From a virus (lineage: Duplodnaviria > Heunggongvirae > Uroviricota > Caudoviricetes), in IMG/VR virus record IMGVR_UViG_3300031857_000009: a stretch of DNA of 64,000 nt, one strand, 5' to 3'. How positions within the stretch are numbered: the first letter of the stretch is position 1; every line of letters begins with the position of its first letter. Positions 24,813 to 60,456 of the stretch are shown piece by piece. Position numbers and translations under genes: made by a program. The notes beneath the pieces are model-generated. The model saw nothing but the letters and a program-made list of their open reading frames with translations, searched no databases and was not told the origin of the DNA.

Positions 24813-24818
24813 TTTTAT

Positions 24819-26000: not shown

Positions 26001-26024
26001 AAAAAAAAATCCCCTTTCGGGGAT
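26001..26024 (-). terminator. rho-independent terminator (minus strand)
   Basis: The plus strand reads AAAAAAAAA then ATCCCCTTTCGGGGAT, so the minus strand has a hairpin followed by a U-run. Confidence 0.6.
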
Positions 26025-26028
26025 TAAA

Positions 26029-26385: not shown

Positions 26386-26387
26386 GA

Positions 26388-26954: not shown

Positions 26955-26995
26955 AATTTTAGTGTTTGAGTGTTAGACAATTATTGTTCCAAAAT

Positions 26996-27370: not shown

Positions 27371-27372
27371 AA

Positions 27373-41185: not shown

Positions 41186-41208
41186 GGACTAAATTTAATT
41201 ATGTAGTA

Positions 41209-43044
41209 TTAAAACTCTATGTCACCATTCATCAGTTGTTCAAATAAATCAGGTTCTCTTTGGTTGACTTCCTTCCCATTTATTTTAACTTTCACCTTTT
41301 TAATATCAATGTGGTTCAATAATCTTTGTGACGCAAATTTTCTAACTCTTTGTTTTAATATTTCTAATGATTCACCAAAATACTCAGGTGGTAACTTATT
41401 ACAAAAATGTCTCTCCTGAATACAGTCACCTGTTTTTTTGTTAAACTCACATGTTACTCTATCTGAACCACCGTTGGTCCTCAATGAAATTATCATTGAT
41501 GATTCTTTGTTTGCGTAACTGGCAACACAGTGGTGCATAAATGTACCCTCTTCCGAATATTCTTCTTCTCTCTTTAATATCACAGGAGAAAAAATATGAT
41601 TGTCGTTCTCAAATCGAGTCTTTATTTGTTCCTCCACTAATCTCACCATTCTGTTGTCATATTGATATTCGATTGACCAACCCTTTTTGATTAATGAACA
41701 TGTCTTGGATAGTTCAATGTGCTCTGTATGAAAGTCCGTGTAATTTGTTGCCCTCATTTTTATGTTAGGGTCAAATTCACGAATCTTTTCAATCATATCG
41801 AAGTGGTCTTTTATCAAAGTGTATATACCTCGAGTAACCGACGATACTGAATGGTCTCCTGCCGGTTTGGGAATCAGGGAATTTAAAATTTTAATGATAT
41901 TTTCCCTATCAACATTATCAATAAACAGGTGTCGGTGGTGATTTTTAGCACCTCTCAATTCAAGCGGTACCATAGAATGTGCATTACCATTATCTACCAT
42001 AAAAAGATTAAAACATTCACTTTTCAAAGAACCGAGGTATTTTGGATAATCCTTTCCAAGTAAATCACACATACATGAAAACTCTTGTAAATTTAATTTT
42101 GGATTTTCATGGAAAAGTTTCAAGGTAAATTTTGAATTTATTCCGTAACTATCCAAAATAGATTGCATTAATTTTCTCTGATTCTTTTTAAGGTATTTTT
42201 CAGTTGGGTAATGTATTTTAATAAGTGGTACAAAGTCGTTTGGTGTTTTTATTTTTTTCTTTTCCGCAAAGAATTCAATAAAACTAGTTATAAAAAAATG
42301 TTTATCAAATAAGTTTCCAACGTTAGTAGGTAAGTTTGGAATGTGATTTTTAATAACATTTACAAATTCGTGTTCATTAAATGTGTCATCAAATTCCTTA
42401 GCGATTTTAAGATTGTTACTAAACTCTTTTTTTAAATTGAAAAGACTGTTTGAACCCAACAAGATTTCTAACGTAGTAAATGAATTTTTTCTAAATCTTT
42501 TGGATTTTATCTTTCCAAAATTCATATCCCCAATCGTAAAATCTCCCTTCTGTAAATCAATTGTTAACGTCATTACCTTGGAAGATTTACGGAAATATTT
42601 CCAATTAAAATCACGATATCTGGTATTCTTGTAACACCTTATGTAAAGTTTACCTTCTCTAAGTTCTATTGTTCTTTCAAATGTTACAATTTGTATTGAT
42701 GAGAAAGGATTCCCATAATGTCTTTTTAAATGTTTTTCACTTGTTGTGTAACAAGGTTCTTTTGTCAATTTTATGAAAGAAACGTATTCTTTTTCTTTTT
42801 CACCATAAAAATATTTTGTCCTCGCACCCTTTGATGGTCTTGGTTCCAATTTTATGGTTTCAAATTTGGTATCCCTATTTACAACGGGCTCAAGTGTCTT
42901 AACCTGTTCAGTAAATAAAAAATCATCATCCAGTTCTTTACCATCAGATACAACAATTGGTATTGGTCTATCTTCAGACAACATACAATTATCCCTAACT
43001 AAATCTATTCTGAAATAAGAAAATCTTTGTTTGATGAGTTGCAT
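41209..43044 (-). CDS. PcfJ-like domain protein (paralogue B, conserved HCV motif)
   Basis: C-terminal EEGTFMHHCVASY plus the central block SILDSYGINSKF. Pfam PcfJ-like is characterised by an HCV motif (recalled, not searched). Confidence 0.45.
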   Translation of the reverse strand: MQLIKQRFSYFRIDLVRDNCMLSEDRPIPIVVSDGKELDDDFLFTEQVKTLEPVVNRDTKFETIKLEPRPSKGARTKYFYGEKEKEYVSFIKLTKEPCYTTSEKHLKRHYGNPFSSIQIVTFERTIELREGKLYIRCYKNTRYRDFNWKYFRKSSKVMTLTIDLQKGDFTIGDMNFGKIKSKRFRKNSFTTLEILLGSNSLFNLKKEFSNNLKIAKEFDDTFNEHEFVNVIKNHIPNLPTNVGNLFDKHFFITSFIEFFAEKKKIKTPNDFVPLIKIHYPTEKYLKKNQRKLMQSILDSYGINSKFTLKLFHENPKLNLQEFSCMCDLLGKDYPKYLGSLKSECFNLFMVDNGNAHSMVPLELRGAKNHHRHLFIDNVDRENIIKILNSLIPKPAGDHSVSSVTRGIYTLIKDHFDMIEKIREFDPNIKMRATNYTDFHTEHIELSKTCSLIKKGWSIEYQYDNRMVRLVEEQIKTRFENDNHIFSPVILKREEEYSEEGTFMHHCVASYANKESSMIISLRTNGGSDRVTCEFNKKTGDCIQERHFCNKLPPEYFGESLEILKQRVRKFASQRLLNHIDIKKVKVKINGKEVNQREPDLFEQLMNGDIEF

Positions 43045-43113
43045 TTTTGATATTTTTTACAAATATACCACTTTTTTAATGATATCCATATTTATTTTTA
43101 TAAAATTATTAAC

Positions 43114-43266
43114 ATGGCAGCAGGAAAAAGTTCAAAAGGTAAATCATCAAACGCATCTATAAAGGTGAATTTTGGTAAAAGAAGATTAGGTAAAGCTAAA
43201 AAATCTTTTAATAAACACGATAAAAGTGAGAAAAACTACCGTGGACAGGGTAGGAGAACTAATTAA
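43114..43266 (+). CDS. small basic protein (50 aa, below ORF-track cutoff)
   Basis: Manual translation gives MAAGKSSKGKSSNASIKVNFGKRRLGKAKKSFNKHDKSEKNYRGQGRRTN*, which is very Lys/Arg-rich. Confidence 0.35.
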   Translation: MAAGKSSKGKSSNASIKVNFGKRRLGKAKKSFNKHDKSEKNYRGQGRRTN

Positions 43267-43574
43267 AAAATACTCCCCAATAACCCAATTAAAGTATAAG
43301 ATAACTTATACCCTGTGAACGCACCCAATGCCGAAGGGATTGGGAAAACTATCAACTTACCTAAATCTGTAACGTACTTTGGTCGATTAACTATCCGACC
43401 CATGTAATAATAGTAGACAATATAACCGATAAGAACAGCAAAGTCGGTTCTTGTTGCAATAAAAACAACAAGTGTCGCTCCGATGAAACCGAAAGTAAAA
43501 TTGTCTCTAATTCCTTCCCATATCTCATAAGTTGTAGCATTTTTATATTCTTTTACGATTTTACGGAGCTTCAC
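43263..43574 (-). CDS. membrane protein
   Basis: 103 aa with three hydrophobic helices. Confidence 0.4.
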   Translation of the reverse strand: MKLRKIVKEYKNATTYEIWEGIRDNFTFGFIGATLVVFIATRTDFAVLIGYIVYYYYMGRIVNRPKYVTDLGKLIVFPIPSALGAFTGYKLSYTLIGLLGSIF

Positions 43575-43593
43575 TTGTTGTTATTTTATGTTA

Positions 43594-44970
43594 TTACTTA
43601 TCAGAATTCAAGTTACCTTGAATTGACCATGTGAAATCTAATTTAACATCATTCTTAAATAACGATGTGTCCATCATATCAATGTATTGATTTGTGGTGT
43701 ATCCATTCTTACCCGTCATAGTCGACAATGCGTGACATGACATACAGTTTGTTTGCATTCCATACACAAAATCAGGTCTGAATTTGTTTTGTAAACTGAA
43801 AACTTTTGGACCAAATCCACCCTCTAAATAAGGATTGAAAGCAAGTATCGGTCTAGCGTTGTTGTCAGAACCGCCACTCACAGGTTGATTCGGCCAAACC
43901 ATTGCGTATGCTGTACTAACTGCGTAGTGTGAAGCGGCGCCTTTAAGTTCTTTAGGTCTAAGACCTGCTTCAAATTTAGAACTTGGTGAAGGAGGGTTAG
44001 ACGGGTCAGGGCACCAAAAATAAGTTTGCCATGTCCAATTTTTAAATTCTTTTGTTGTTACGTGCATGGCTACCAACAACACATAGTCACCTTCGATAAA
44101 TTGTCTACTTGGTGTAGTTCCAACGTCTTGGTGACTATTGAGATAGTCCGCACCTACTCTATCAATTTTATAATTAATAAAATCATTTACGTTACAGGTC
44201 GCATCTTTAATTTGTTCCTCTGTGGGATTTGATGTTGTTACAGGTACTAACTTTTTATTCGGTTCCTGTTTATTATTAACATCGGCGTAAACCCATTGTT
44301 GCCATTCATTATATCTATACGCTTTGGCCGGATTTGGTGATACCCAAACAGGTACTCTAATCAAACCGTTTTTACTTGGTACACCAGCATAATATGTTGG
44401 TTTGGTGGTGATTGAAGTATTAGGAAATTCAGGTACCGCACCAATTCCATCTTTTACCAAATATTTGTTCAATGACGATTGATTAAATAATTTGTTTGAT
44501 GTTGCAAAATGTGCCGCAGATGGGTCATAAGAAACTGTTTCCAACACAGTGAAGTTTGTGTCAATCTTTTGTCCCGCGAAAAGTTTACCATGTACAAATT
44601 GTTTCGGGATGTTAAGTTCAGTTCTGTTTGATTTTTCCATTGAACTTGAAACTTGACCCTGTGCAGACATTGCAGATAGTTCTTGAACACCCATCCAAGT
44701 TTCAAAAACCAACAATGTTTGACCATTGTATTTTTGTTTTGTTGGTTGAGTAAGTCCAGCCCAAATACCCCACGCGTGATTTACAATACTGGTTGTATCT
44801 TGATTCTCTAACCATCCGTAAATTTTCGTAGAGTCTTCAGGAAAATTGAATCCCGAAATACCTAAGTCCGTTGGGAACTCTTGTGGTTTAATTGTTTTAC
44901 TCGTGTCAGAACATGAGTATACGATTGTAAACAATCCTAAAATTAATAATAGTGTTTTTGTAATTTTCAT
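43594..44970 (-). CDS. secreted lipoprotein with single CxxCH motif
   Basis: Lipobox LLILGLFTIVYSC, and CMSCH near the C-terminus. Confidence 0.5.
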   Translation of the reverse strand: MKITKTLLLILGLFTIVYSCSDTSKTIKPQEFPTDLGISGFNFPEDSTKIYGWLENQDTTSIVNHAWGIWAGLTQPTKQKYNGQTLLVFETWMGVQELSAMSAQGQVSSSMEKSNRTELNIPKQFVHGKLFAGQKIDTNFTVLETVSYDPSAAHFATSNKLFNQSSLNKYLVKDGIGAVPEFPNTSITTKPTYYAGVPSKNGLIRVPVWVSPNPAKAYRYNEWQQWVYADVNNKQEPNKKLVPVTTSNPTEEQIKDATCNVNDFINYKIDRVGADYLNSHQDVGTTPSRQFIEGDYVLLVAMHVTTKEFKNWTWQTYFWCPDPSNPPSPSSKFEAGLRPKELKGAASHYAVSTAYAMVWPNQPVSGGSDNNARPILAFNPYLEGGFGPKVFSLQNKFRPDFVYGMQTNCMSCHALSTMTGKNGYTTNQYIDMMDTSLFKNDVKLDFTWSIQGNLNSDK

Positions 44971-44974
44971 TTTT

Positions 44975-45223
44975 TTATTTGTTTTTATTTTTATTTTCTA
45001 TAACTATGAACTTATTTATTTCGTGAAGAACTTCGGCAGTATCATATCTTACACTATAAACCACGTCCCATATTGTTCTATCATTATAAGAAGGGTGTAA
45101 TCTTGATTGGGCCCATTTTTTGGCTTTATTAAAATCCTCTACTGACCATTTTACTGGTTCAACTATTGTTGGGGAATTTAAACGCCTAAGTTTCATCAAT
45201 AGCAGTTTTAAAAATTTAATCAT
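44975..45223 (-). CDS. hypothetical protein
   Basis: 82 aa ORF. Confidence 0.35.
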   Translation of the reverse strand: MIKFLKLLLMKLRRLNSPTIVEPVKWSVEDFNKAKKWAQSRLHPSYNDRTIWDVVYSVRYDTAEVLHEINKFIVIENKNKNK

Positions 45224-45395
45224 CTATATTTTTCAATTATCTGTTATGTTTTGGTGTATAACCAATAACCAATTGATAACTAAACCAACCAATTATTAAT
45301 TCATAATCACCATTTAACCAACTGTTATATGTTATTTTAACATATGGTAAAATATAAGATTGATATACAACTTTGTCAATACTTATTTTCATAGT

Positions 45396-46721
45396 TTAAT
45401 TACTTAAGGGTGCTTTAATCGATGGGTGTGATTGATAATTTTCGATTTGAAAATCCTTATTTTCCAAATGAGTTATTAAAGATGAGTCTTCAGATAATGA
45501 TTTATAAAATTCATCGGTCTTCATATGTTTTAGTTTGGGTAATTTATAAGGTTCTCTTGTGTATCGTGGTATTTTATATATCTCATAATATTCAGACATA
45601 CCTCCACCAAATGGTGCTAAGTCTTTCAACGCACTTTTATAACCATTAGGACCCATCGCCTCTTTTAACATACCTTCTCTCTCTTCATGTGTATACTTTC
45701 TACCGATTTGTTCTCTTGCTTGTTCAACATGGTTACTATACAAATGAGTATCACCTAAATTACCAATCAACTCATCAGGTACCATATTTACTTCTTTAGC
45801 AATAATCTCAAGTAACAAACCGTAAGAAGCAATATTGAATGGTAGACCTAAGAATGTGTCTACTGAGCGTTGATTCCACATTAAAGAGATTGCTCGTTTA
45901 GGAACTCTTAAACTATCCATGTGAACATCGTGATAATCACTACTTTGATTTAAAGGGTCTTTTGTTGAGTTATAATAATTAATCCTTTCATCTAAACTCA
46001 ACTCTCTCGTATAAACTTGAAATCCATAATGACAAGGTGGAAGAACCATTTGGTCCAGCTCTCCAACATTCCAAGCATTGACCATTAATCGTCTTGAGTC
46101 TGGATTTGTTTTAAGGTCGTTGATTAGGTTTGTGATTTGGTCTATTGAATTGTTTTGGTATTCTATTTTGACACCATACTTGGTAACATCTTCACCGATT
46201 TCAATTGCTTTTAGTACTCTGTGTTGGTCAGAACCTTTTACATCCTTTAAGTCGTAATTAGTCACATTCTTTCTACCCCATCTTCTCCATTGCTTACCAT
46301 ACACAGGTCCGAGGTCACCCCACTTCTTAGCAAACTCATCATCGGTTTTTATTTTGTTGATGAATTCTTCTTTTGTTAATCGAAATCCTAACTCTAACAT
46401 TTTTTCTTTTGACATATTAGGTAAGATTTTGGCATCTTCAATTAGATAGTTCTTATACGCATCACCATCCCAAATATGACAATTGTTATCAACAAGGAAC
46501 TTGATGTTTGTATCACCACGAAGGAACCATAACAATTCGGTTACCATCGTCTTCCACGCCATTTTCTTGGTTGTAAGTAATGGAAACCCATCGGACATTT
46601 TATGACGGATTGTATAACCAAAAATAGATTTGGTTCCTGTACCTGTACGGTCTTTCTTTTCTACCCCATAATCTATAATAGTTTGGAGTAAGTCTGTGTA
46701 TTGTTTATCTAATTTGTTCAT
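45396..46721 (-). CDS. thyA: thymidylate synthase (ThyA) homologue with large insertions
   Basis: RTGTGTKSIFG, LLWFLRGDTN, DLGPVYGKQWR, MVLPPCH (catalytic Cys), LGLPFNIASYGLL and GDTHLYSNH match ThyA. At 441 aa it is about 150 aa longer than canonical ThyA. Confidence 0.8.
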   Translation of the reverse strand: MNKLDKQYTDLLQTIIDYGVEKKDRTGTGTKSIFGYTIRHKMSDGFPLLTTKKMAWKTMVTELLWFLRGDTNIKFLVDNNCHIWDGDAYKNYLIEDAKILPNMSKEKMLELGFRLTKEEFINKIKTDDEFAKKWGDLGPVYGKQWRRWGRKNVTNYDLKDVKGSDQHRVLKAIEIGEDVTKYGVKIEYQNNSIDQITNLINDLKTNPDSRRLMVNAWNVGELDQMVLPPCHYGFQVYTRELSLDERINYYNSTKDPLNQSSDYHDVHMDSLRVPKRAISLMWNQRSVDTFLGLPFNIASYGLLLEIIAKEVNMVPDELIGNLGDTHLYSNHVEQAREQIGRKYTHEEREGMLKEAMGPNGYKSALKDLAPFGGGMSEYYEIYKIPRYTREPYKLPKLKHMKTDEFYKSLSEDSSLITHLENKDFQIENYQSHPSIKAPLSN

Positions 46722-47335
46722 TACTCAAATGTTTGAATTTTTGCGTCTACTTCTTTTAATTCAGACCACGTTCCAAGATACGTAATCGCTCTGACTTTTC
46801 TATTATCAATCCACACATATTCTTGGTCATCTTTGATTCTTGGTTTGTCCATAACCAATCCGTGATATTTAAAACCTTTTTCTTTTAACCATGTTTCGGT
46901 TACTTCACGGTCTTTACTTTCACGAGCGGTAAAAAATGTAATTACATTTCCCTCATCGTACCATTTGTTGATGATACCCAACGCGTTTGGGTAATGGTTA
47001 GCTGTCGGATAAAGATGTGAATCTTCATTTTTAATGTCGTCACAAATTGTCCCATCAATATCAATCAGAAAAACCCGACTAACCATTTTTTGCGTTATTA
47101 TGATGTCAGCAATTGTACTATGAAAAATATCATCGTACATTACTTGACAATTTGTTTTTAAAACATACTCGACTTCATCACCGTCTTTTACATCATATTT
47201 TCCGCTTTTTATTTTTTCTAAAGTTTCTTTTGATGCTTCAAAATTCTTTGATGAATCTTCAGAAACAATAAACCATCCTTCGACACTGTTAATAAGTTCG
47301 TCAGATTTTTTTTGATATATTAATTTACCTTTCAT
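46721..47335 (-). CDS. HAD-family phosphatase with N-terminal extra domain
   Basis: FLIDIDGTI motif I, TFFTAR motif II and WIDNR motif IV. There is a 1-nt overlap with thyA. Confidence 0.5.
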   Translation of the reverse strand: MKGKLIYQKKSDELINSVEGWFIVSEDSSKNFEASKETLEKIKSGKYDVKDGDEVEYVLKTNCQVMYDDIFHSTIADIIITQKMVSRVFLIDIDGTICDDIKNEDSHLYPTANHYPNALGIINKWYDEGNVITFFTARESKDREVTETWLKEKGFKYHGLVMDKPRIKDDQEYVWIDNRKVRAITYLGTWSELKEVDAKIQTFE

Positions 47336-47729
47336 TTCTAACCCATTTTCTATCTGAATTTAATGTAAAAGCACCAATAAAATCGTCACCCCGATTCCAA
47401 TCTTTTGGTGATAATAATGATAATGTATTTACACCATTAAAATTATATAAGTAATATGTTTCACCAACAATTGGGTCAAAAGAAATTTTTGATTCCCAAA
47501 CCATTATTGAATCCACATACTCTCTTTGAAGTTTTTCTATTGATTGAATGATTTCTTCTCTTTGACGATTAAAGACATCAATCATTTTTTTTGAGGACTC
47601 TTTTTTTACGAGACCCACATTAGGTAATTCAAATTTTGGCGAACCGATACTGGTAGGATAATGCTTTCTATTAGCGTCGTACCCATTTGTTTCATCCCAA
47701 ACAACAATATCAGGTTTCTTTTTATTCAT
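47325..47729 (-). CDS. hypothetical protein
   Basis: 134 aa ORF. Confidence 0.4.
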   Translation of the reverse strand: MNKKKPDIVVWDETNGYDANRKHYPTSIGSPKFELPNVGLVKKESSKKMIDVFNRQREEIIQSIEKLQREYVDSIMVWESKISFDPIVGETYYLYNFNGVNTLSLLSPKDWNRGDDFIGAFTLNSDRKWVRNER

Positions 47730-47881
47730 CCTCCAAACCGTCCATTAAAGTTACGTCCCAATCTGAAAAATCGTCACCTAATTCCATACCCAATTTCAAA
47801 TTTTCCAAAAAATTTTTTTCCCATTCCTCATAAGAAAGATTTGAGTTGGGATTTTGTTTAATGTAAATTTTATATTGTCTT

Positions 47882-48310
47882 TTAAGGGTTGACATCGTTT
47901 TGTTCAGAATCTCTTATGTCAATTAATTTTTGAATTCTACTCCTACCTTTTTCACCAATTGGTACCGGATTACCTTCTTCATCAATCCTAACAAACCTTA
48001 TGTTTGTTTTCAAGATGACAATTTGGTTACCTGTGTAAACATTATGTGCTCTTGCTTCCATATACAAGGTAACTGAAGTATTCCCTAATTTACTTGGTGA
48101 CCCGTAAATTTTAATCAACTGACCCTCTTTGGCTGGTTTTTCAAAAAAACATTTATCAATTGATACGGTAACTAATCTTGGTGAATCACACAATTGCATG
48201 GAGTATCCCGCAGCCGCCGCGTCAATCCACGCTAAAAGTTTTCCACCGAATAAATTTCCGTGGAATCCTAAATCCGACTTTTTTATGGGGTGTGAATTCA
48301 AAAATTCCAT
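47882..48310 (-). CDS. hotdog-fold acyl-CoA thioesterase (YciA/4HBT-like)
   Basis: GNLFGGKLLAWIDAAAA signature. Confidence 0.55.
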   Translation of the reverse strand: MEFLNSHPIKKSDLGFHGNLFGGKLLAWIDAAAAGYSMQLCDSPRLVTVSIDKCFFEKPAKEGQLIKIYGSPSKLGNTSVTLYMEARAHNVYTGNQIVILKTNIRFVRIDEEGNPVPIGEKGRSRIQKLIDIRDSEQNDVNP

Positions 48311-48658
48311 TACTCAAAAGTTATTTGTTCTCTAATAATGTATTCTTTTAATGCGTTTTCCGCTTCTATTTTAGTTGCAAAAACCCCAATAGTTTGGTCA
48401 AATTCTGTTGGGTCGGACACACCAAATTGTCCGTTTAATGTTTCATAAATGAACGTATCTAAAATTTGTTGACTTACCATAATTAATTTATATTTCTTGA
48501 TTTTTATTTGATTCCGATTCTTGATTTATTGATTCAGAATTTTTAGTCTCTTGCATTTTCTTAAATAAATTCATCAATGTGGACTCTTCTCTCTTTAATC
48601 TTTGATTACGAGCTTGAACTTTTTTTCTATGTTCTTTGTCTTTTTTTCCCATGGTATT

Positions 48659-49783
48659 TTATTCTTCTTCATCTTTTCGATAACTTTCCAAGAGTTCCTC
48701 CCCTGAAAGTGTACCGTATTTATTTACAATTTTTTCGGTGTCTATTTCAACATTCATCATGTGATGAACATTATTTAATTCTTCGGCTAATGATAAACTA
48801 TCACTAATCACTTTAACGATTTTATATGGGTCCGCGTGTGATGCTGGTCTCCTGTCTTCAAGATAACCCTTCCATGTCTCACCAACGGATTTTGGTACAC
48901 GGATAGATGCACCTCTGTCTGAGACACCCCAACTAAATTTATCAATAGATTGTGTCTCAAAATGACCTGTTAATCTCAAATGGTTATCAGAACCATAAGA
49001 GTCAATATGTTCTTGTGTTCTTGATTCAAAAGACCTAAAAATTGCATTGAAGTATTGTTCACCACCCTCTTCTCTCATTTTTTGATTTGAGAAATTTGTA
49101 TGTAAACCTGAACCGTTCCATTCTCCGTGGGTCATCGGTTTGGGATGTAACTCAATAGAACGACCATATTTCTCAGCAATTTTATGTAAAAAATATCTAC
49201 TCATCCATAAATCATCAGAAGCGGCAATTTTACCTGTTGCAAAAATTTGGTATTCCCATTGACCTAATGCAACCTCTGAATTGGTTCCCTCCACATTGAT
49301 GTCATATTTTAAACACATGTTCAAATGTTCATCAGAAATATTTCGACCAACAATATGTCCACCTACACCACAATAATAAATTCCTTGACCGTCAATGATA
49401 CCATTTCTTTCAAATCCAAGAATTGGATTATTATGTGAAGAACGAATAAAATATTCCTGTTCAAATCCAACCCAAAAATTTACATCTTCCTCACCTACTT
49501 TTGCTCTATGATTTGATGGATGAATTTCATTATTACCATCTAAAACCTCACATAATACATATACTGTATCAAGTGAACTATTTGTATGATATAATTTTAC
49601 TGGCTTAAGATAACAATCTGAAAAGTTACCTTCCGCTTGTTTAGTTGAGCTTCCGTCAAACCCCCAATTGGGGATGTGTTTCAATTCAAATGGTGCCGGT
49701 AGGTCCACAATTTTTATTTTACTTCTGAGATTTGGCTCAGGGGAATACCCATCAAGCCATACGTATTCTACTTTTGTTTTCAT
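48659..49783 (-). CDS. glnII: glutamine synthetase, type II (eukaryote-like GSII)
   Basis: VEYVWLDG beta-grasp start, NWGFDGSST, GFEQEYF, GIYYCGVG, NGSGLHTNFS, RLTGHFETQSI, SIRVP and LEDRRPAS are collinear with GSII over about 370 aa. Confidence 0.8.
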   Translation of the reverse strand: MKTKVEYVWLDGYSPEPNLRSKIKIVDLPAPFELKHIPNWGFDGSSTKQAEGNFSDCYLKPVKLYHTNSSLDTVYVLCEVLDGNNEIHPSNHRAKVGEEDVNFWVGFEQEYFIRSSHNNPILGFERNGIIDGQGIYYCGVGGHIVGRNISDEHLNMCLKYDINVEGTNSEVALGQWEYQIFATGKIAASDDLWMSRYFLHKIAEKYGRSIELHPKPMTHGEWNGSGLHTNFSNQKMREEGGEQYFNAIFRSFESRTQEHIDSYGSDNHLRLTGHFETQSIDKFSWGVSDRGASIRVPKSVGETWKGYLEDRRPASHADPYKIVKVISDSLSLAEELNNVHHMMNVEIDTEKIVNKYGTLSGEELLESYRKDEEE

Positions 49784-50099
49784 TTTTTATAATATATGTT
49801 TTTCTGTATCTGAATACCGACCATAAAAATTAAGAATCTCAAAGCCAAACCCCAGCTTGGTGAGGTTGCACCGGTTTCAAAAAACGTGTCTTTACGGTAG
49901 TAAAATATGGGAGTTGGTAAAAGAAACCAATGGTATTTCTTTCTTATTACAAAAAAATCCGTGATGTATTTCTTTTCTTTATTTGACATTTTTTTTCTTT
50001 TTTAAATAATCTAAAACTATATTGAATGAACCAAGAGAAATTATACCAAATCCAAAATATTTTTCAATCTCGGGATTACTGGTGTTCATTCCGTATTTT

Positions 50100-50345
50100 T
50101 CAATTATGATTCCCGTCAGAATCATCAGTACGTAAATTATTGTCCTTATATTCATATGTTTTTAAGTATTGAATTGTTTTATATAACGTGTGTGTTTCCC
50201 TCATGTTAAAAACACCGGAATAATGACCATGTTGTAAACCCATTTCAATAATTTGAATTGCCATCTGTGGGTTTAAATTATCTAAAACCATTTCCAATTC
50301 ATCATTATTGTCAAAATTTAATTGGTCGTTGAATAGTCCTTTCAT
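50100..50345 (-). CDS. hypothetical protein
   Basis: 81 aa ORF. Confidence 0.4.
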   Translation of the reverse strand: MKGLFNDQLNFDNNDELEMVLDNLNPQMAIQIIEMGLQHGHYSGVFNMRETHTLYKTIQYLKTYEYKDNNLRTDDSDGNHN

Positions 50346-50369
50346 GATATTAAAATATAGTAAACAAAT

Positions 50370-50765
50370 ATGATAAAGTCAAATATTTATAAAAATATGT
50401 CAGTGATTATTAATAATACAAAGTTCCCTGCGGAATACCTATCCGAACCTGAAGAAATTAGTCAAGGTATGATGGGTAGAGATAATTTAAATGGTTGTAT
50501 GGTTTTTAATATGGGTGGTGTTGGTCACCATTCTTTTTGGATGAAAAACTGTTTAATACCTTTGGATATTGTTTTTGTATTGAAAAATAGAATCAGTAAA
50601 ATACATAGAAATTGTGAACCCGCTGGTCAAAATGAATTGAACCCAAAAAGATACACCGGCATAGGTGACCATGTTATTGAGTTTCCCGCCGGTGTTACTG
50701 ATAAATTTAAAGAAGGTGACCGAGTTAATATGTATTTGGGAACACCTATGAATCCTGTCCGTTAA
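50370..50765 (+). CDS. DUF192-family protein
   Basis: QGMMGR...GCMVFNMG...HSFWMKNCLIPLDIVFV matches the DUF192 (COG1430) signature. Confidence 0.5.
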   Translation: MIKSNIYKNMSVIINNTKFPAEYLSEPEEISQGMMGRDNLNGCMVFNMGGVGHHSFWMKNCLIPLDIVFVLKNRISKIHRNCEPAGQNELNPKRYTGIGDHVIEFPAGVTDKFKEGDRVNMYLGTPMNPVR

Positions 50766-50767
50766 TT

Positions 50768-51615
50768 TTATTCTTCAAACATTACCAGTTGTTTCTTTTG
50801 GTTATCATAATCAATCAATCTCTGTTGAGATATCTTTGTGTAAGATTCTGATAACTCAAAACCAATATAATTTCTATTCAGCTTCTTAGCTGACAAAGCG
50901 GTGGTTCCACTTCCTGAAAAACAATCAACAATCAGGTCATTTTGATAGGAAAGTATTTTTATTGCTTTCATTGGGATGTCCATGGAGAATGTGGCTTTAG
51001 TTAAAGATTTTGTGTCGTTGAAGTATTTCCATTGACCAAAGACTAATTCCATGAATTCGTTTTTGTCTTTATCTGAATAAACCCTTTTGTTTTTAAAATT
51101 ACCTTCCTCGTTTTCGACCTCAATCTGATTATAAGACCATTGAGATATACCTTTTTCTTTCTTTTTGTAATCTTTCTTATATGCAAGAATTACACATTCT
51201 TTTGGATTGTATATGTATGGTGATGATGGTGACATCCAAGAACCCCAAGCGGTTGTTTTAGAACGGTGTGGAGAATCCTCCTCTAAGTCCACAACACCAA
51301 AGAATCCAAAACCAATCTCTTTCATCATCTGCCAATATTCAGATACTAAGAAAATTCTCCCACCTCTTTCTCTAACGTTTATTTCATATGGTATATTCAA
51401 GGCAATTCTACCATCATCTTTTAATGTACGGTAAACTTCGGATAACCATTTCTTACACCACTCAAAATACTCATCCATCGGAGCATCGTCTTTGTGCACA
51501 TCATAACTAATACCGACATTGTACGGTGGACTCGTAACAAAGAGGTCTACAGTACCGTCATTTAACTCCTTAAACAGTTCTAAGCAGTCACCCTGATAAA
51601 TTTTATTCATTTCCA
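50768..51615 (-). CDS. beta-class DNA methyltransferase (N4-cytosine or N6-adenine), SPPY motif
   Basis: Motif IV DLFVTSPPYN is N-terminal and motif I DCFSGSGTT is C-terminal. The track start is a TTG; the first ATG is at about 51615. Confidence 0.7.
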
Positions 51616-51703
51616 TTGACAAATTGTTTTCTATTTATTATTATTACAAAAGATAACGAATAAAAAACAATAAACCAAAATATTTATAAAAAAACTTAAA
51701 ATC

Positions 51704-51889
51704 ATGGGATGCGGATGTAAAAAAAGAAACCAACCTGTTAGTAATCAAACGGTAAACATTCAACTAACCGAAGGTGGTTCAACACCTCCACAGGAGATTA
51801 CAATTATGGAACAACAACTTGACCAAATCATAAAAAAGGTTGAGGAGATTAACAATCAAACTAACGAAGAAAACACAGAAGGACAATAA
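51704..51889 (+). CDS. small hypothetical protein
   Basis: 61 aa, the first gene of the plus block. Confidence 0.3.
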   Translation: MGCGCKKRNQPVSNQTVNIQLTEGGSTPPQEITIMEQQLDQIIKKVEEINNQTNEENTEGQ

Positions 51890-51896
51890 ATTGTAT

Positions 51897-51935
51897 CGGA
51901 CAGTCTAATAAATTGTCCGATATTTTTTGTCTTTT
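51897..51935 (+). terminator. rho-independent terminator
   Basis: TCGGACAGTCTAATAAATTGTCCGA followed by TATTTTTTGTCTTTT. Confidence 0.6.
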
Positions 51936-52166
51936 ATAATATATATAAATTTATATACTTATATTATGCCTAAACAACAAACAAAACTAACCAGCGTTAA
52001 CATCATAGATGATGTTTATAAAAGATTTAAGATAAAAAGTGTAGATGGTTCAATCAATCTACAAAAATTAGTAAACCGAGCTCTTGACCTATATAACACT
52101 AGAGAAGATTTTAGAAAACAAATTGATAATCACAACGGTCTTGCACCAAACGGTTCCAAATTTTAA
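51927..52166 (+). CDS. hypothetical protein
   Basis: 79 aa ORF. Confidence 0.4.
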   Translation: MSFIIYINLYTYIMPKQQTKLTSVNIIDDVYKRFKIKSVDGSINLQKLVNRALDLYNTREDFRKQIDNHNGLAPNGSKF

Positions 52167-52215
52167 GTTGTGAATTTTATTTCTTATATTATCATCAATA
52201 TTTTAAAACAAAAAA

Positions 52216-53673
52216 ATGATTACAATAGGTTACAGTACAAGAGAGTCCAACCCAAAATTTCAAGAATATTTAAAAAAAACTTGTGGACACCCCAAAGTTC
52301 AAGTTATTGAAAAAGTAAACAATGGTGAAAAAAGTCTTTCACAAACTTACAATGAAATTATTCAAGAGTCGATTCATGATATTGTCGTACTTTGTCATGA
52401 TGACATTTACTTTAATACGACTTCGTGGGGTAGAAAATTAGTCAAACATTTTGAAGAATCTGACTACGGGATTCTCGGTGTTGCCGGTACAACCAATATT
52501 CATGAGAGTGGTAGGTGGTGGACAGATAATACCAAAATGGTTGGTATTGTTAATCATGAAAATGAGGGTAAAAAATGGGAATCGAGATATGCAAATGGAA
52601 TCCCAAATTCAATTCACGAAGTTTGTTTAGTGGATGGTTTATTCATTGGAATCCACAAAAACAGAATAAAACACACTTTTGATGAGTCAGTACCGGGTTT
52701 TCATTTTTATGATATGGTATTCTGTACTAGCAATCACTTAAGTGAGGTAAACATCGGTGTTATATACAACATAAGAATCACTCACAAATCAATCGGAATG
52801 ACCAATGATTCTTGGGAAAAGAATAGGGAATTTTACATTGAAAAATTTAAAGAGAACCTACCAATTAATATAACACCAAAAATTGATTATGACATAACCA
52901 AACCAAAACAGTTTAAAGATAAATTTAATTTAATAGTTCAAACATCAAACGATAATGAAAATTTAATTCAGTTTTTTGAAAACATAAAAAAATTACCAGT
53001 GTTTGATAGTTTACAGATTTCACTCATCTCGACGGATACCAATATAGACAATATTAGAGAATTTGAATCTGAAAATATTAAAATTTACGAGGGTTTTTTT
53101 GATACATTAAATAAAAACTTATCAGTACTGAAATGGGATGAATCGTTTATGGAATCAAAAACAGATTTGTTATTTTTCAGTAATGATACTGTTACCGTAT
53201 TGAACGACGTTTTCTCAAGTATGTATTCAATATTTAAGAGTGAAAAAAATACTTTTGGGTGCGTCTTTCCTACAGTATTAGAAAACGACCGAACAATTTT
53301 TTCAAATGGATTGGATATAGTTCAAAACAACGAACAGTTCAATTTAATTTTTAAAAACAAATCATCTTTTTTCAATATTTTACACGGACACTTTCCAAAC
53401 AATTTTGGTAGTATTAGTGACTTTTTTGCCACTACATCTACAAATTTAAAAATGATTGATTGGTTTGATATTAATTTAGAAACATCAATTTATAACTTAG
53501 ATTTTGCGTTGAAAACTTTACTTAAAAAACGTAAAACATTCATTGACACAAACAGTGTGGTAATGATTGATATGGCATCAAAATTTGAAAAGGTTGATGT
53601 TGAATTAAAACAAGTCTTAGGTCAGTACATAAACTCACCTGAAATTAGAAAAAATATCAAACAATTAAGATGA
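52216..53673 (+). CDS. glycosyltransferase (GT-A/GT2-like N-terminal domain) with C-terminal extension
   Basis: IGYSTRESN...VVLCHDDIYF resembles the GT2 N-terminus. It is the first gene of an overlapping operon. Confidence 0.45.
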   Translation: MITIGYSTRESNPKFQEYLKKTCGHPKVQVIEKVNNGEKSLSQTYNEIIQESIHDIVVLCHDDIYFNTTSWGRKLVKHFEESDYGILGVAGTTNIHESGRWWTDNTKMVGIVNHENEGKKWESRYANGIPNSIHEVCLVDGLFIGIHKNRIKHTFDESVPGFHFYDMVFCTSNHLSEVNIGVIYNIRITHKSIGMTNDSWEKNREFYIEKFKENLPINITPKIDYDITKPKQFKDKFNLIVQTSNDNENLIQFFENIKKLPVFDSLQISLISTDTNIDNIREFESENIKIYEGFFDTLNKNLSVLKWDESFMESKTDLLFFSNDTVTVLNDVFSSMYSIFKSEKNTFGCVFPTVLENDRTIFSNGLDIVQNNEQFNLIFKNKSSFFNILHGHFPNNFGSISDFFATTSTNLKMIDWFDINLETSIYNLDFALKTLLKKRKTFIDTNSVVMIDMASKFEKVDVELKQVLGQYINSPEIRKNIKQLR

Positions 53674-54449
53674 TAAAAATTGTATCGGGATTTACAGAAA
53701 AAGGTGGTTCTACCACTTTTTTTATAAACTTAACAAATTTCTTAAATGAAAATGGTATTGATTGCACATTTTACGGTAATCAGAATTACCATTTAGACAA
53801 ATGTAAATCAGGGAACATTGAAAAAGATTTAAAGTATGAATCTGATGATATTGTAATTACCCATTTTTTACAACTACAGGAAAGACCACCTGTTAAAAAA
53901 GTTATTTTGTCTTGTCATGAAAAATGGTGGTTCCCTGTTGGTAAAATTAAACAGTATTGGGACCTGTGCGTGTTTTTACATGAAGAGCATCGAAAATATC
54001 ACTCGGATTACAGGGGTGATTATGTAATAATACCAAACATCAAAGAAAATTTAATTATTTCAAATAAAGAGCTGGTAAGAAATATTGCAGGAATTATTGG
54101 TACAATTGAAGACAGAAAACAGACCCATGTGTCAATACAAAGAGCATTAAAAGACAGGTGTGAAAAAATCTATTTGTTCGGTCACATCGGTGACCAAAAC
54201 TATTTTGACAAATTGGTAAAACCTTTAATGAATCCAAGAGTAATTCATTACGGTCACACCACCAATAAACAAGAAATGTACGATATGATTGGTAAGGTAT
54301 ATCACTCATCAAAGGGTGAGGTTGCTTGTTTGGTTAAAGATGAATGTTATTTAACCGGTACAGAGTTTTATGGTAATGAAGAGACTATGAATGAAGTTTC
54401 TAAATTAAGTAACGAAGAGATATTAACACTTTGGAAAAACATATTTTAA
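53670..54449 (+). CDS. putative GT-B glycosyltransferase
   Basis: C-terminal SSKGEVACLVKDECYLTGTE resembles the GT4 E-x7-E region. There is a 4-nt overlap with the upstream gene. Confidence 0.35.
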   Translation: MIKIVSGFTEKGGSTTFFINLTNFLNENGIDCTFYGNQNYHLDKCKSGNIEKDLKYESDDIVITHFLQLQERPPVKKVILSCHEKWWFPVGKIKQYWDLCVFLHEEHRKYHSDYRGDYVIIPNIKENLIISNKELVRNIAGIIGTIEDRKQTHVSIQRALKDRCEKIYLFGHIGDQNYFDKLVKPLMNPRVIHYGHTTNKQEMYDMIGKVYHSSKGEVACLVKDECYLTGTEFYGNEETMNEVSKLSNEEILTLWKNIF

Positions 54450-54450
54450 A

Positions 54451-55173
54451 ATGAAGATACACGCACATATACTGTCATGGAATGAAGAAAAAATATTACC
54501 ATTCACATTGGATTACTATAGTACAATCTGTGAAAAAATATTCATATACGATAATATGTCAACGGACTCCTCTGATGAGATTTATAAGAGGTACCCAAAA
54601 GTTGAGGTTATTAAATGGGATAGTGGTAATGAAATAAATGAAATTAATTACGTAAACATTAAATCCGAAGAGTATAAAAAAAGAAGTAGAGGTCAGGGTG
54701 TTGATTGGGTTATAGTTTGTGACTGTGATGAGTTTATATACCATGAAAATCTTATGGATAAACTTCAAGAGTACAAAGAAATGGGTATAACCGTCCCAAG
54801 AATAGACGGTCACGACATGGTTAGTACTGAATTTCCAATATACGACGGTGAATTCATTACAACAAAAATTAAAACAGGTTCACAAACGTATGAACCAATG
54901 TGTAAAAATATAATTTTTCATCCTGATTTAGATATAAAATACGGCATTGGTGGTCACAGTTTTAATTCTGTTGATGGTAAATTTTCGGATGAGCGGGAAA
55001 TAAAACTTCTTCACTATAAATTCTTGGGTAAAGACTACGTGAAGAACATTTACATTTCAAGAGCAAAGAGATTGTCATCGTTCAATAAACAACATAAATT
55101 CGGTGAACATTATTTTAATTTACCATTCAATTACATGGACAGCATGTTAAAAGAAAATTATCAAGTTATATGA
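54451..55173 (+). CDS. GT-A glycosyltransferase
   Basis: IFIYDNMSTDSSDEI and a CDCDE DxD motif. Confidence 0.5.
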   Translation: MKIHAHILSWNEEKILPFTLDYYSTICEKIFIYDNMSTDSSDEIYKRYPKVEVIKWDSGNEINEINYVNIKSEEYKKRSRGQGVDWVIVCDCDEFIYHENLMDKLQEYKEMGITVPRIDGHDMVSTEFPIYDGEFITTKIKTGSQTYEPMCKNIIFHPDLDIKYGIGGHSFNSVDGKFSDEREIKLLHYKFLGKDYVKNIYISRAKRLSSFNKQHKFGEHYFNLPFNYMDSMLKENYQVI

Positions 55174-55991
55174 GGAAAATACTTATATCGGATTTTACCA
55201 TTAAAGAAGTACCTCACGGTGGTTCTGAATGGGTGAATCAAGTTTTAATTGATAGATTTAATCTTGAGTTTGAATATTCAAACCAAGTCAAGTCATTTGA
55301 TTACAACGCCCTGTATATTATATCAAATATTTCTTTGATGAACCCAAACTTGGTTAATCAAATACAAAATTTGAACTACGTCATTATTGAAAACGATTAT
55401 AAAATATGTGCAAGTAGACACCCATGGAGATATACCGACAACATAATTCCGATTGAGGAAAGAACCAACTATTCTCTTTACCGGAATGCAAAAGCGGTAT
55501 TTGTTCAAACAACCGACCACATGAACGTTTATCTTAAAAACGATGTTGTTGCTAATTTTATAAATCTGAATAGTTCGATATGGTCAAATGAGGACTTAGA
55601 ATTATTGAGGAATTTAAATAAATCCAACAATGTTAAAAACGACAAATATTCTGTTTACTATACAAATAATTGGATAAAGAACACCCAAGGTAGTCTGAAG
55701 TATTGTTCTGAAAATAAATTACCGGTCCATATTCTTAAAGAATCTAAAGACAGAGTTGAATTTTTAAGTAATATGGCCAAATGTAAAGGTATTGTGTTTT
55801 TCCCGATAGCAAGAGAAACTTTTTGTAGACTGGTTGTTGAGGCAAAATGTTTAGGTTTGGAAGTAATAACGACACAAAATTATGGTGCAAGTTTAGAAGA
55901 ATGGTTTAATAGGTTATCAGGTGATGAATTAATTGATTTCTTAGAAACTAACACTTTAAAAAATTTAGAAATCATTTCAACTTATATATGA
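55170..55991 (+). CDS. GT-B glycosyltransferase (GT4-like)
   Basis: FFPIARETFCRLVVEAKCLGLEVITT matches the GT4 C-terminal signature. Confidence 0.5.
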   Translation: MRKILISDFTIKEVPHGGSEWVNQVLIDRFNLEFEYSNQVKSFDYNALYIISNISLMNPNLVNQIQNLNYVIIENDYKICASRHPWRYTDNIIPIEERTNYSLYRNAKAVFVQTTDHMNVYLKNDVVANFINLNSSIWSNEDLELLRNLNKSNNVKNDKYSVYYTNNWIKNTQGSLKYCSENKLPVHILKESKDRVEFLSNMAKCKGIVFFPIARETFCRLVVEAKCLGLEVITTQNYGASLEEWFNRLSGDELIDFLETNTLKNLEIISTYI

Positions 55992-56980
55992 TATTATTTT
56001 GTTACGGCACAAGACCTGAGTATATTAAAATAAAAAAATTAATAGAAATGTGTGGGGAAAGTATTCCCCATAAAATTTTATATGTTACCCAACACAAAGA
56101 TATTGTATTGGGTGATTTTGATTATAAATTATCCATTGATGATACGTGTGAAAATAGATTGGATAGTATTATGTCATCCGTATTTTTAAATTTTAAAAAA
56201 GAATTTTTGGAAGGGGTTACACATATACTTATCCAAGGGGACACCGCAACCGCTCTTTCATTATCCCTAATAGGATTACACCATAAAAAAGAAGTGATTC
56301 ATTTAGAAGCGGGATTACGGACATATGACTACAATCACCCTTACCCCGAAGAAATGTATCGGCAGTTAATTAGTAGAATTTCAAACTATAATCTTTGCCC
56401 AACAGAAAGTAACAAGATGAACTTAGAAAATGAAAAAGTTCAGGGTAAAAATTTTGTAGTTGGCAATACCGTATTAGATAATCTTAATAAAGAAAATATT
56501 ACATACGAAAATAAAGTCTTAATCACTTTACATAGAAGAGAGAATCATGAGATGATGTCGGAGTGGTTTGATGTTATCAATCGATTAGCAAAGAATAATC
56601 CTGAATTAAAATTCATTCTTCCAATACACCCAAACCCAAACGTCATAAAACACAAACATATATTGACACATGTTGATGTTATTGAACCATTAACCCATGA
56701 TAAATTTATTGAGGAATTCAAATCCTGTAAATTACTAATTTCAGATAGTGGGGGTGTTCAAGAAGAGGCGTCGTTCCTAAATAAGAAAGTTATTGTATGT
56801 AGAGAAAAAACTGAGAGACCTGAGTCCTTGGGTAAAACGTCTTTTATATGTAAAAAACCCATTGACTTAGAAGGTATTTTTTACGATATTATTAACGATT
56901 TCCAAACAGAATATGATTGTCCTTTTGGTGATGGTAATTCTTGTGAAAGAATCATTGAAATATTTAGAAAAATTGTATGA
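55988..56980 (+). CDS. wecB: UDP-N-acetylglucosamine 2-epimerase (non-hydrolysing)
   Basis: GTRPEYIKI, HLEAGLRTYD, PYPEEMYRQLISRIS, GNTVLD, LITLHRREN and DSGGVQEEA are collinear with WecB/MnaA. Confidence 0.8.
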   Translation: MILFCYGTRPEYIKIKKLIEMCGESIPHKILYVTQHKDIVLGDFDYKLSIDDTCENRLDSIMSSVFLNFKKEFLEGVTHILIQGDTATALSLSLIGLHHKKEVIHLEAGLRTYDYNHPYPEEMYRQLISRISNYNLCPTESNKMNLENEKVQGKNFVVGNTVLDNLNKENITYENKVLITLHRRENHEMMSEWFDVINRLAKNNPELKFILPIHPNPNVIKHKHILTHVDVIEPLTHDKFIEEFKSCKLLISDSGGVQEEASFLNKKVIVCREKTERPESLGKTSFICKKPIDLEGIFYDIINDFQTEYDCPFGDGNSCERIIEIFRKIV

Positions 56981-57705
56981 GTATAACGGTAATATTAAAT
57001 GGGTATAAAAGACCACATGTTCTCCAAAAACAATTGGAATCAATTAGAAATCAAAGTGTCCAACCCGAATCAATTTTATTTTGGCAAAATTCTGGTTCTC
57101 AATTTGATGAGGGACTAACCAAAGATTTAATTCACGCATCTTGTAATAGTAATTTAGGTGTGTGGGCAAGATTTGCATTTGCTTTAAATGCCAACACAGA
57201 ATATATTTGTGTTTTTGATGATGACACAATACCGGGTAAACTATGGTTAGAAAACTGTCTAAACACCATGAAAATTCAAGAAGGTTTATTAGGAACTATC
57301 GGTGTAAAATTTCACACAAAAAACTCTTATTGGCCAGCAACAAGAGTCGGTTGGGACCAACCTAACGAAGAAATTGAAAAGGTCGACATTGTTGGTCACT
57401 CGTGGTTCTTTAAAAGAGAATGGTTATCGATATTTTGGAGAGAATTACCTGAAATCAATCAGAGTAAATTAGTTGGTGAGGATATGCACTTTTCATATAC
57501 ATTACAGAAATACGCAAATATCGGAACTTACGTTCCTCCCCATCCTAAAGAAAATAGAGAAATGTGGGGTAGTATACCAGAATATGCATGGGAACATGGA
57601 ACTGATTCCAACGCAATTTCCGTAAATCATTCAAATATGAATTTAATGGGTGAAGTTTACCGTGGGTATGTAAATAAAGGATTTAAGACAATATTAAATG
57701 ATTGA
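56977..57705 (+). CDS. putative GT-A glycosyltransferase
   Basis: VILNGYKRPHVL...ICVFDDDTIP DxD motif. Confidence 0.4.
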   Translation: MSITVILNGYKRPHVLQKQLESIRNQSVQPESILFWQNSGSQFDEGLTKDLIHASCNSNLGVWARFAFALNANTEYICVFDDDTIPGKLWLENCLNTMKIQEGLLGTIGVKFHTKNSYWPATRVGWDQPNEEIEKVDIVGHSWFFKREWLSIFWRELPEINQSKLVGEDMHFSYTLQKYANIGTYVPPHPKENREMWGSIPEYAWEHGTDSNAISVNHSNMNLMGEVYRGYVNKGFKTILND

Positions 57706-58417: not shown

Positions 58418-58423
58418 TTCAGT

Positions 58424-59014: not shown

Positions 59015-59025
59015 AAATTATAAAA

Positions 59026-60454: not shown

Positions 60455-60456
60455 TA

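Follow-up and report, generated by a model that had tools for sequence, protein, structure and literature searches.

The window analyzed here, a stretch of 64,000 nucleotides from a virus of the Caudoviricetes (Duplodnaviria; Heunggongvirae; Uroviricota) recorded in IMG/VR as IMGVR_UViG_3300031857_000009, harbors on its minus strand a gene for a type II glutamine synthetase (GS). The gene quite probably encodes a catalytically competent enzyme of the bacterial type (GlnII) and serves large phages as an accessory auxiliary metabolic gene (AMG), which would raise glutamine during infection. Its protein family, its fold and its complete active site have been established, together with the virus-only, monophyletic clade to which it belongs, the purifying selection acting on that clade, its phage context and its accessory status.

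Family and Fold of the Glutamine Synthetase

The gene and its two domains are located as follows.

48659..49783, minus strand: type II (GlnII-like) GS gene with an ATG start, encoding 374 amino acids (aa), the span including the stop codon; assigned with Pfam, NCBIfam, PDB and Foldseek
49538..49774, minus strand: N-terminal beta-grasp domain, residues 4-82 (Pfam PF03951, Gln-synt_N), which holds D43 and S46
48824..49501, minus strand: GS catalytic domain, residues 95-320 (Pfam PF00120, Gln-synt_C)

Both Pfam domains are united in one chain of 374 aa, with scores of 36.4 bits for Gln-synt_N (cut-off 33.4) and 62.9 bits for Gln-synt_C (cut-off 24), and this is the architecture of type II enzymes (GSII), for which about 330-380 aa are expected. 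In the sequence search of the PDB, residues 2-333 align with all solved GSII enzymes, the best match being GlnII of Streptomyces coelicolor (4bax, E=6e-82), followed by the yeast enzyme (3fky, 2e-80) and by the human, dog, maize, soybean and fly enzymes (E of about 1e-73), whereas the structures of type I enzymes (GSI) were matched at 1e-8 or worse and with no more than 36 bits, compared with 244-279 bits for GSII. The top NCBIfam model is that of bacterial GlnII, NF041605, which covers model positions 1-328 of 333 with 323 bits (E=2e-96), while the models of type I GlnA, the type III enzyme (GSIII) and gamma-glutamylputrescine synthetase yielded 47.5, 28.7 and 24.8 bits, respectively. As judged from these alignments, the collinearity with GSII is far beyond chance.

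A first-pass annotation, made by a model from the letters of the window without database searches, had proposed a GSII-type protein of about 374 aa at precisely this position, and the open reading frame (ORF), both Pfam domains and the PDB matches bear it out. It had also cited two sequence motifs, of which NGxGxHTNFS is indeed present (NGSGLHTNFS, residues 223-232), while RLTGxHETxxI does not hold, residues 270-280 being RLTGHFETQSI with Phe where the cellular and eukaryotic enzymes have His.

The AlphaFold2 (AF2) monomer model of the protein reached a pLDDT of 66.8 and a pTM of 0.71, with low confidence in the interface loops. When Foldseek was queried with this model, 4bax was again the best match (TM 0.72/0.78, 42% identity), eukaryotic GSII came next, and the best matches listed were all GSII. 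Enzymes of this type assemble as decamers of two pentameric rings, with the active sites located at the subunit interfaces.

Active Site and Substrate

The active site was examined in an alignment of the window protein with 79 members of its viral clade, 79 cellular GlnII, three megaphage homologues and the S. coelicolor, yeast and human enzymes, in which the human reference GLUL was checked to be identical to PDB 8dnu over 373/373 residues. The window protein agrees with human GS at 23/23 active-site positions, and the same residues are found in 79/79 members of the viral clade. They comprise D43, S46, W104, E108, E110, Y137, E170, Q175, E177, N223, G224, H228, N230, S232, R237, R270, E276, R290, R295, Y307, E309, R311 and R312, which correspond, in the same order, to human D63, S66, W130, E134, E136, Y162, E196, Q201, E203, N248, G249, H253, N255, S257, R262, R299, E305, R319, R324, Y336, E338, R340 and R341. 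Among them, two sets of metal ligands, E108, E170 and E177 as well as E110, H228 and E309 (human E134, E196 and E203 as well as E136, H253 and E338), are kept throughout the 79 clade members, and N223, G224, N230, S232, R237, R270, R290, R295 and R311 are the ligands of ATP and glutamate. The ammonium- and glutamate-binding residues, whose inspection had been proposed in the first-pass annotation, are therefore identical to those of human GS, and no catalytic residue is lost.

The ammonium site and the glutamate flap are of particular value for deciding the substrate. D43, S46, Y137 and E276 (human D63', S66', Y162 and E305) are all kept, the first two being contributed to the ammonium site of the neighbouring subunit. 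The amine ligases PauA7 and GlnA3, in contrast, have lost residues of this site by the replacements D50->G and Y179->A and, in the flap, E327->W (PMC5403932), an enlarged pocket being a further mark of such ligases; the equivalents of D50, Y179 and E327 in the window protein are D43, Y137 and E276. Judged by these residues, it is very likely that the enzyme would be catalytically active with ammonia.

A Virus-Only Clade within Bacterial GlnII

In IMG/VR, relatives of the window protein at 63-89% identity are encoded on 142 contigs of up to 310 kb. The exact protein was seen on 36 contigs, the longest of 288 kb. A large protein database contributed more than 120 clusters (formed at 90% identity) at no less than 68% identity, with lengths of 352-435 aa. 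In GTDB, with one genome per species, 537 places encode a relative, and the best of these are only 51-57% identical, belonging to Pirellula and other Planctomycetota, Verrucomicrobiota, Saprospiraceae and other Bacteroidota, Granulosicoccaceae and MGII archaea. GlnII is thus widespread in GTDB among Planctomycetota, Verrucomicrobiota, Bacteroidota, Gammaproteobacteria and MGII archaea, and the sole copy above 57% is one of 62% identity on a contig termed L082.

A neighbour-joining (NJ), hence distance-based, tree was constructed from 333 columns and 95 sequences left after dereplication at 95%, in which the cellular side was represented by the 80 best pattern-selected matches and the eukaryotes by two sequences only. 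The viral clade was separated in 98/100 bootstraps, with L082 as its sister in 100/100, and it nests inside bacterial GlnII beside Verrucomicrobiota and Pirellula, while the S. coelicolor, yeast and human enzymes fall outside. The phylogeny that the first-pass annotation had called for accordingly yields a virus-only clade within bacterial GlnII, and the gene does not lie in a housekeeping clade of the presumed host. The statement that the enzyme is neither GSI nor GSIII, upheld by the PDB and NCBIfam comparisons, can be retained, but its description as eukaryote-like and not typical of bacteria is misleading in view of the 537 GTDB matches and the position of the clade. The megaphage homologues branch apart from the clade of the window protein, and their GS genes were therefore acquired independently.

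The ratio dN/dS was calculated by the Nei-Gojobori method for 2307 pairs with 0.05<dS<1.5. Its median within the clade is 0.168 (interquartile range 0.144-0.190, maximum 0.29), with values of 0.03-0.09 for the closest pairs, and the viral clade is under purifying selection. The composition of the gene is phage-like, since its GC content of 0.351 (window genes 0.324+-0.034) and its GC3 of 0.229 (0.280+-0.046) both deviate from the values of the window genes by no more than about one standard deviation. The low dN/dS and this composition together mark the GS gene as functional and long established in these genomes.

The contig L082 (SHWW01000027.1, 1-12745) derives from a Lake Baikal metagenome-assembled genome (MAG) of Flavobacteriaceae and carries the closest tail-less GS, with a GC content of 0.329. 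The gene is accompanied by a CobS-like AAA ATPase (phrog_249) beside a 732-aa CobT-like protein, by a PNK-like HAD protein (phrog_415) and by a weak Rz-like match, and no housekeeping genes were found on the contig. It was considered as a cellular donor of the viral GS and rejected on account of its phage-like neighbours and window-like GC content. L082 thus probably belongs to a phage and was placed in the bacterial MAG by a binning error, which leaves no cellular donor among the sequences compared.

The C-Terminal Tail

The only distinctive feature of this phage GS is its C-terminal end.

48662..48793, minus strand: virus-clade-specific C-terminal tail, residues 331-374, recognized from the alignment and predicted to be helical

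Every GS of the viral clade runs 35-75 aa past the end of cellular GlnII (332-357 aa), and the clade has in common the tail motif EL..T.H.MY.D.DT...KYG..S.EELL.EY..D, which is followed in some members by an additional acidic extension. The tail is absent from the 80 cellular GlnII, from L082, from the megaphage copies and from the S. coelicolor and human enzymes. With a dN/dS of 0.23, compared with 0.16 for the core, it is less conserved but still constrained, and the AF2 model predicts helices at residues 319-344, 349-356 and 361-373 with a pLDDT of 50-65.

A phmmer search with the last 50 residues (window 48662-48811) against 1.84 billion representatives returned nine matches, mostly GS fragments. 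The other matches were the uncharacterised repeat proteins P0151 (597 aa) and P0153 (388 aa), constructed from 6-11 tandem units of about 50 aa (…TYQGKPIS…FAKLIGK…KYGYTTGEEIIEHYRK), in which the unit end KYGYTTGEEIIEHYRK resembles the distal tail motif KYGTLSGEELLESYRK. This likeness may reflect a short helical motif common to both, or it may have arisen by chance.

As for its role, the tail could be a "thong"-like clamp of the double ring, a docking motif for a phage protein, or a device that blinds the enzyme to the nitrogen regulation of the host. It is conceivable, though rather unlikely, that the tail and the relaxation of His to Phe or Tyr at the position adjoining the flap mark a GlnII turned into a phage-adapted enzyme with new properties; if so, the virus would control the nitrogen assimilation of its host in a new way that goes beyond gene dosage.

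Phage Context and Host

With a GC content of about 0.33, the window is organized in three co-directional blocks, on the plus strand to about 7.9 kb, on the minus strand from 8.7 to 51.6 kb and on the plus strand again from 52.2 kb. Most of its ORFs have no Pfam match or fall into PHROG families known only from phages. Phage-typical functions include a phrog_1967 UvrD-like helicase, endolysin-like proteins with peptidoglycan-binding and glucosaminidase domains, an exonuclease, a phosphoesterase, DNA methyltransferases and a PcfJ-like protein, and the 10 kb to the left of the window contain the Pfam families GP88 and Phage_L5_gp82. No rRNA, tRNA or housekeeping genes were found in the window, nor any cellular housekeeping genes across the 84 kb made up of the window and 10 kb on each side. 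Window proteins recur on contigs of the 0.2-1 Mb class and never on contigs above 1 Mb. The phage origin of the region is therefore indicated by indirect evidence, resting on gene content and on the IMG/VR classification of the 142 related contigs, in agreement with the earlier proposal that the GS sits in a phage genome.

The host of this phage lineage is most likely a member of the Bacteroidota. The nearest cultured relatives of the helicase are found in the Bacteroides phages DAC/SJC (36% identity), a Chryseobacterium phage and Flavobacterium phages, and a 153-nt stretch of the thymidylate synthase (ThyA) gene is 92% identical to the ThyA DNA of Flavobacterium phage vB_FspM_immuto. The latter was the only near-identical match to deposited phage DNA when window positions 40000-60000 were searched.

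Gene Neighbourhood and Accessory Status

The ORFs of 80 viral GS loci were clustered into families, and the genes around the window GS were compared with them.

49780..49989, minus strand: hydrophobic small ORF of 69 aa, whose stop codon overlaps the GS start codon (ATGA)
50100..50345, minus strand: ORF of 81 aa, family f20, a conserved anchor upstream of GS that is also present in the GS-less locus L177
50370..50765, plus strand (opposite): DUF192 protein (Pfam PF02643), a recurrent neighbour in 35-44/80 loci
50768..51622, minus strand: N6/N4 DNA methyltransferase (MTase) with an SPPY motif (Pfam PF01555), the most constant neighbour, in 65-66/80 loci
45396..48310, minus strand: variable downstream block, assigned with Pfam/NCBIfam; context rather than a conserved partner set, composed of the following four genes
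47882-48310, minus strand: 4HBT thioesterase, in 3/80 related loci
47325-47729, minus strand: DUF2452 protein, in 6/80 related loci
46721-47335, minus strand: HAD phosphatase, in 7/80 related loci
45396-46721, minus strand: ThyA with three insertions, in 8/80 related loci

The majority gene order is f8-f3-f7-GS-DUF3310-...-MTase-...-DHH-like-DUF192, with the MTase about 0.5 kb downstream of GS in most loci, while in the subgroup of the window the MTase lies upstream and the order is glycan cluster-f22-f24-MTase-DUF192-f20-f25-GS-variable block. Because the GS loci have many other families in common, the linkage of MTase and DUF192 to GS may simply be the conserved local gene order of one phage lineage. 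In the locus L177 (IMGVR_UViG_3300042898_001229, 7371-11664), the series glycan cluster-f22-f24-MTase-DUF192-f20 is kept and GS is absent, its site being filled by unrelated ORFs of 184 and 480 aa, which marks a hotspot of gain and loss. The presence of this anchor without GS indicates that GS is accessory and is located at the border of a variable region.

The overlap of the GS start codon with the stop codon of the preceding small ORF suggests translational coupling, and the 69-aa ORF and GS are probably co-translated. The window-type small ORF is conserved in five close relatives only, and many loci (L009-L076) have an ORF of about 70 aa whose end overlaps the GS start codon in ATGA. These overlapping ORFs form two unrelated families, the hydrophobic window type in five loci and a basic type (…GGWFRIF…PLFSVRNGYKKSLK…) in 29 loci, and a third family of 62 aa (…LRQPIHIDYI…EESKYAKDYYVV) is often found just upstream. 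A conserved small partner protein of GS, by analogy with IF7 or sP26, was considered and rejected, as hmmsearch gave E values of 0.1-0.2 and hhalign a probability of 0.2% between the ORF types. A promoter and terminator scan around GS gave counts that did not exceed those expected from shuffled sequence (39 against 36.8 and 4 against 3.6), with Bacteroidota promoters lying outside the range of the tool.

ThyA looks like a canonical thymidylate synthase by sequence: its best PDB matches are 3uwl (234 bits) and the E. coli enzyme (226 bits), it scores 305 bits with TIGR03284 (cut-off 108), and the motifs PPCH, QRS.D, LPFNIASY and GDTHLY are intact. It comprises 441 aa, in which insertions at about residues 153-190, 244-278 and 343-409 interrupt an otherwise canonical chain.

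Several further genes were observed in this part of the genome. A cluster resembling glycan or sugar modification occupies 52216-64000 on the plus strand and continues about 1 kb past the window (L167 1-11676), with 14-15 co-directional genes, including Glyco_tranf_2_5, a UDP-GlcNAc 2-epimerase-like Epimerase_2, two or three GT2 glycosyltransferases, two Methyltransf_21, a GDP-mannose-dehydratase-like epimerase and several ORFs without a family; it is unusually large for a phage, and related phages have different genes at this position (f84-f96, f108-f113). Just to the right of the window, glutaredoxin, thioredoxin and a second, D12-class DNA methyltransferase are encoded (L167 11686-14551). 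On the minus strand, 43594-44970 encodes a protein of 458 aa with a Bacteroidota-style lipoprotein signal (…LFTIVYSC) and, toward the C terminus, a CxxCH haem-c-type motif (CMSCH), which has no Pfam or PHROG family and is kept in three close relatives (f50). The adjacent paralogues at 39782-41185 and 41209-43044 on the same strand (467 and 611 aa, family f15), the longer of which has a PcfJ-like domain, belong to a family found again, to one or the other side of GS, in most of the related phages. Metabolic-looking genes are gathered at 19264-27376, in the same minus-strand block as GS, namely a NUDIX hydrolase (19264-19680, listed on the plus strand), a weak 2OG-Fe(II) oxygenase match (20499-21371), a class I/II aminotransferase (24819-25928, phrog_5879) and an MGS-like domain protein (26996-27376).

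Proposed Role and Alternative Explanations

Glutamine is the amide-nitrogen donor for the synthesis of purines, pyrimidines (CTP), NAD and amino sugars, and GS activity is tightly controlled by nitrogen status. Bacteroidota mainly possess GSIII and GSI. A large-phage lineage with contigs of up to about 290-310 kb, most likely infecting such hosts, would express its own GS from the long minus-strand block of non-structural genes, and the enzyme would convert glutamate, NH4+ and ATP into glutamine. Glutamine production in the infected cell would thereby be raised or uncoupled, and the synthesis of nucleotides, NAD and amino sugars would draw its amide nitrogen from phage glutamine, apart from the host GS and its nitrogen-status control. 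In this scheme we infer the enzymatic activity, the physiological purpose and the independence from host regulation, just as we do any role of the tail. Glutamine supply, already put forward in the first-pass annotation, appears to be the most plausible purpose, and the 12 kb glycan cluster and ThyA, although not conserved partners of GS, are consistent with a high precursor demand. A phage with its own GS can in principle redirect host nitrogen assimilation, which bears on the flow of nitrogen in the lakes and oceans in which such phages abound.

Several observations weigh against this proposal. The score of 323 bits stays below the equivalog cut-off of 500 for NF041605, so that by sequence the protein is a divergent GlnII member and not an equivalog by the NCBI threshold. 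The residue preceding the flap (human H304) is Phe275 in the window protein (codon 48959-48961); His, Phe and Tyr occupy this position 34, 30 and 15 times in the viral clade, whereas His occurs there in 78/78 cellular GlnII as well as in the enzymes of human and Streptomyces. In GSI enzymes, the corresponding residue is Tyr. No glutamine-dependent amidotransferase was found near GS in the window or in the 10 kb on either side, and a dedicated downstream pathway is therefore not evident. Finally, the accessible 84 kb yielded neither a capsid nor a portal or terminase gene.

The relaxed pre-flap residue could also be read in favor of a gamma-glutamyl-amine ligase that acts with ThyA, the HAD phosphatase and the thioesterase in the modification of DNA, nucleotides or protein, as the first-pass annotation had suggested on the basis of these neighbours, which lie within 4 kb on the same strand; the extra tail would be compatible with it as well. 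This possibility is nevertheless very improbable. The three residues lost by characterised amine ligases are retained, the gamma-glutamylputrescine synthetase model (NF045547) gave 24.8 bits against a cut-off of 650, and ThyA, HAD, DUF2452 and thioesterase genes accompany GS in only 8, 7, 6 and 3 of 80 loci, with a ThyA that matches canonical thymidylate synthases in all catalytic motifs. A DNA-hypermodification pathway built on these neighbours was likewise rejected, its linkage being confined to a few close relatives and its ThyA being canonical. Somewhat more credit, though still little, is due to the idea that the function is mediated by the tail, whose helices would dock GS to a phage or host protein (as a regulator trap, scaffold or virion cargo) or would change the oligomer, with catalysis secondary or newly regulated. 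The tail is present in every clade member, missing from cellular GlnII and constrained, a likeness to its distal motif is seen in the repeat unit of two uncharacterised proteins, and regulator binding and filament formation are known from other GS enzymes (PDB entries). The fully conserved active site and the more strongly constrained core indicate, on the other hand, that catalysis is selected; the tail is modelled at low confidence, no partner has been identified, and the small ORFs coupled to GS come from unrelated families.

That no structural genes were found in the 84 kb, together with the assignment of the nearest relative outside IMG/VR to a Flavobacteriaceae MAG, might be taken to mean that this DNA comes from a bacterial chromosome, or from a host segment that was integrated or mis-assembled, and that the GS is a housekeeping GlnII of the host. 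Such an origin is scarcely credible for a window that lacks tRNA, rRNA and housekeeping genes, most ORFs of which match phage-only PHROGs or nothing, and whose GS clade occupies 142 IMG/VR contigs, with the longest carriers in the 0.2-1 Mb class and never above 1 Mb. Moreover, among the GTDB species genomes the identity does not rise above 62%, and the neighbours of the copy that reaches this value are themselves phage-like (CobS-like phrog_249 and PNK-like phrog_415). Accessory status at the edge of a variable region would also suit a passenger gene that was taken up from a bacterium in recent times and is now decaying or without function, but this explanation, to which the lowest probability of all is assigned, is effectively refuted by the selection and conservation data, as dN/dS amounts to 0.03-0.17, the clade is deep and diversified (63-100% identity, more than 120 clusters at 90% identity), neither the reading frames nor the active sites are damaged, and the composition has been ameliorated. 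A working bacterial-type GlnII that supplies glutamine to the phage consequently remains the reading best in accord with the evidence.

Comparison with Known Systems

GS genes in huge phages have been reported before, and the window gene adds detail without opening a new category. The HPGC preprint (10.1101/2025.02.27.640493) counts, in its passages on GS, 248 GS genes in 247 huge phages and offers the same AMG interpretation. Of two studies from 2026, the passages concerned state in one that large-phage glnA clusters with prokaryotic homologues and in the other that glnA is among the AMGs of jumbo phages (PMC13172472, PMC13037316), and a Microcystis bloom study mentions GS among virus-encoded genes. 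The view of the first-pass annotation that GSII in a phage is unusual can hardly be maintained beside these reports. Like the window GS, the genes described in the relevant passages of the three former sources are AMGs of phages of at least 200 kb, mostly from freshwater or marine habitats, and those passages do not mention the type of GS, the status of its active site, a virus-only clade or a tail. The detail added here accordingly consists of the bacterial GlnII type, the complete active site, a large virus-only clade under purifying selection and a private tail. No biochemical characterisation of a phage GS was found, and the enzyme of 374 aa offers a clean, small target for a first biochemical test.

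Structurally, the window GS shares its two-domain architecture, fold and catalytic residues with bacterial GlnII (S. coelicolor 4bax, NF041605), from which it differs in being phage-encoded, in its identity of 51-57% to the nearest cellular enzymes, in its sub-equivalog score, in the extra tail of 35-75 aa and in the Phe before the flap. The eukaryotic GSII, including the human enzyme (8dnu/2qc8), yeast Gln1 (3fky) and maize GS1a (2d3a), are collinear with residues 2-330, and Y336 is common to the human and window enzymes, whereas many bacterial GlnII have R or W there; the window GS nevertheless shows only 35-41% identity to the eukaryotic structures by Foldseek, lacks the eukaryotic N-terminal extension and is placed inside the bacteria in the tree. 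The uncultured megaphages LR756501/LR756503, LR745206 and LR756502 (635-735 kb) also encode GSII-type genes with conserved active-site residues, but these are only 54% and 43% identical to the window GS, lack the tail and branch separately. The amine ligases PuuA, PauA7 and GlnA2/GlnA3/GlnA4, finally, belong to the same superfamily and employ the same ATP- and metal-dependent gamma-glutamyl-phosphate chemistry; they are GSI-like and have lost D50, Y179 and E327, whereas the window GS keeps all three.

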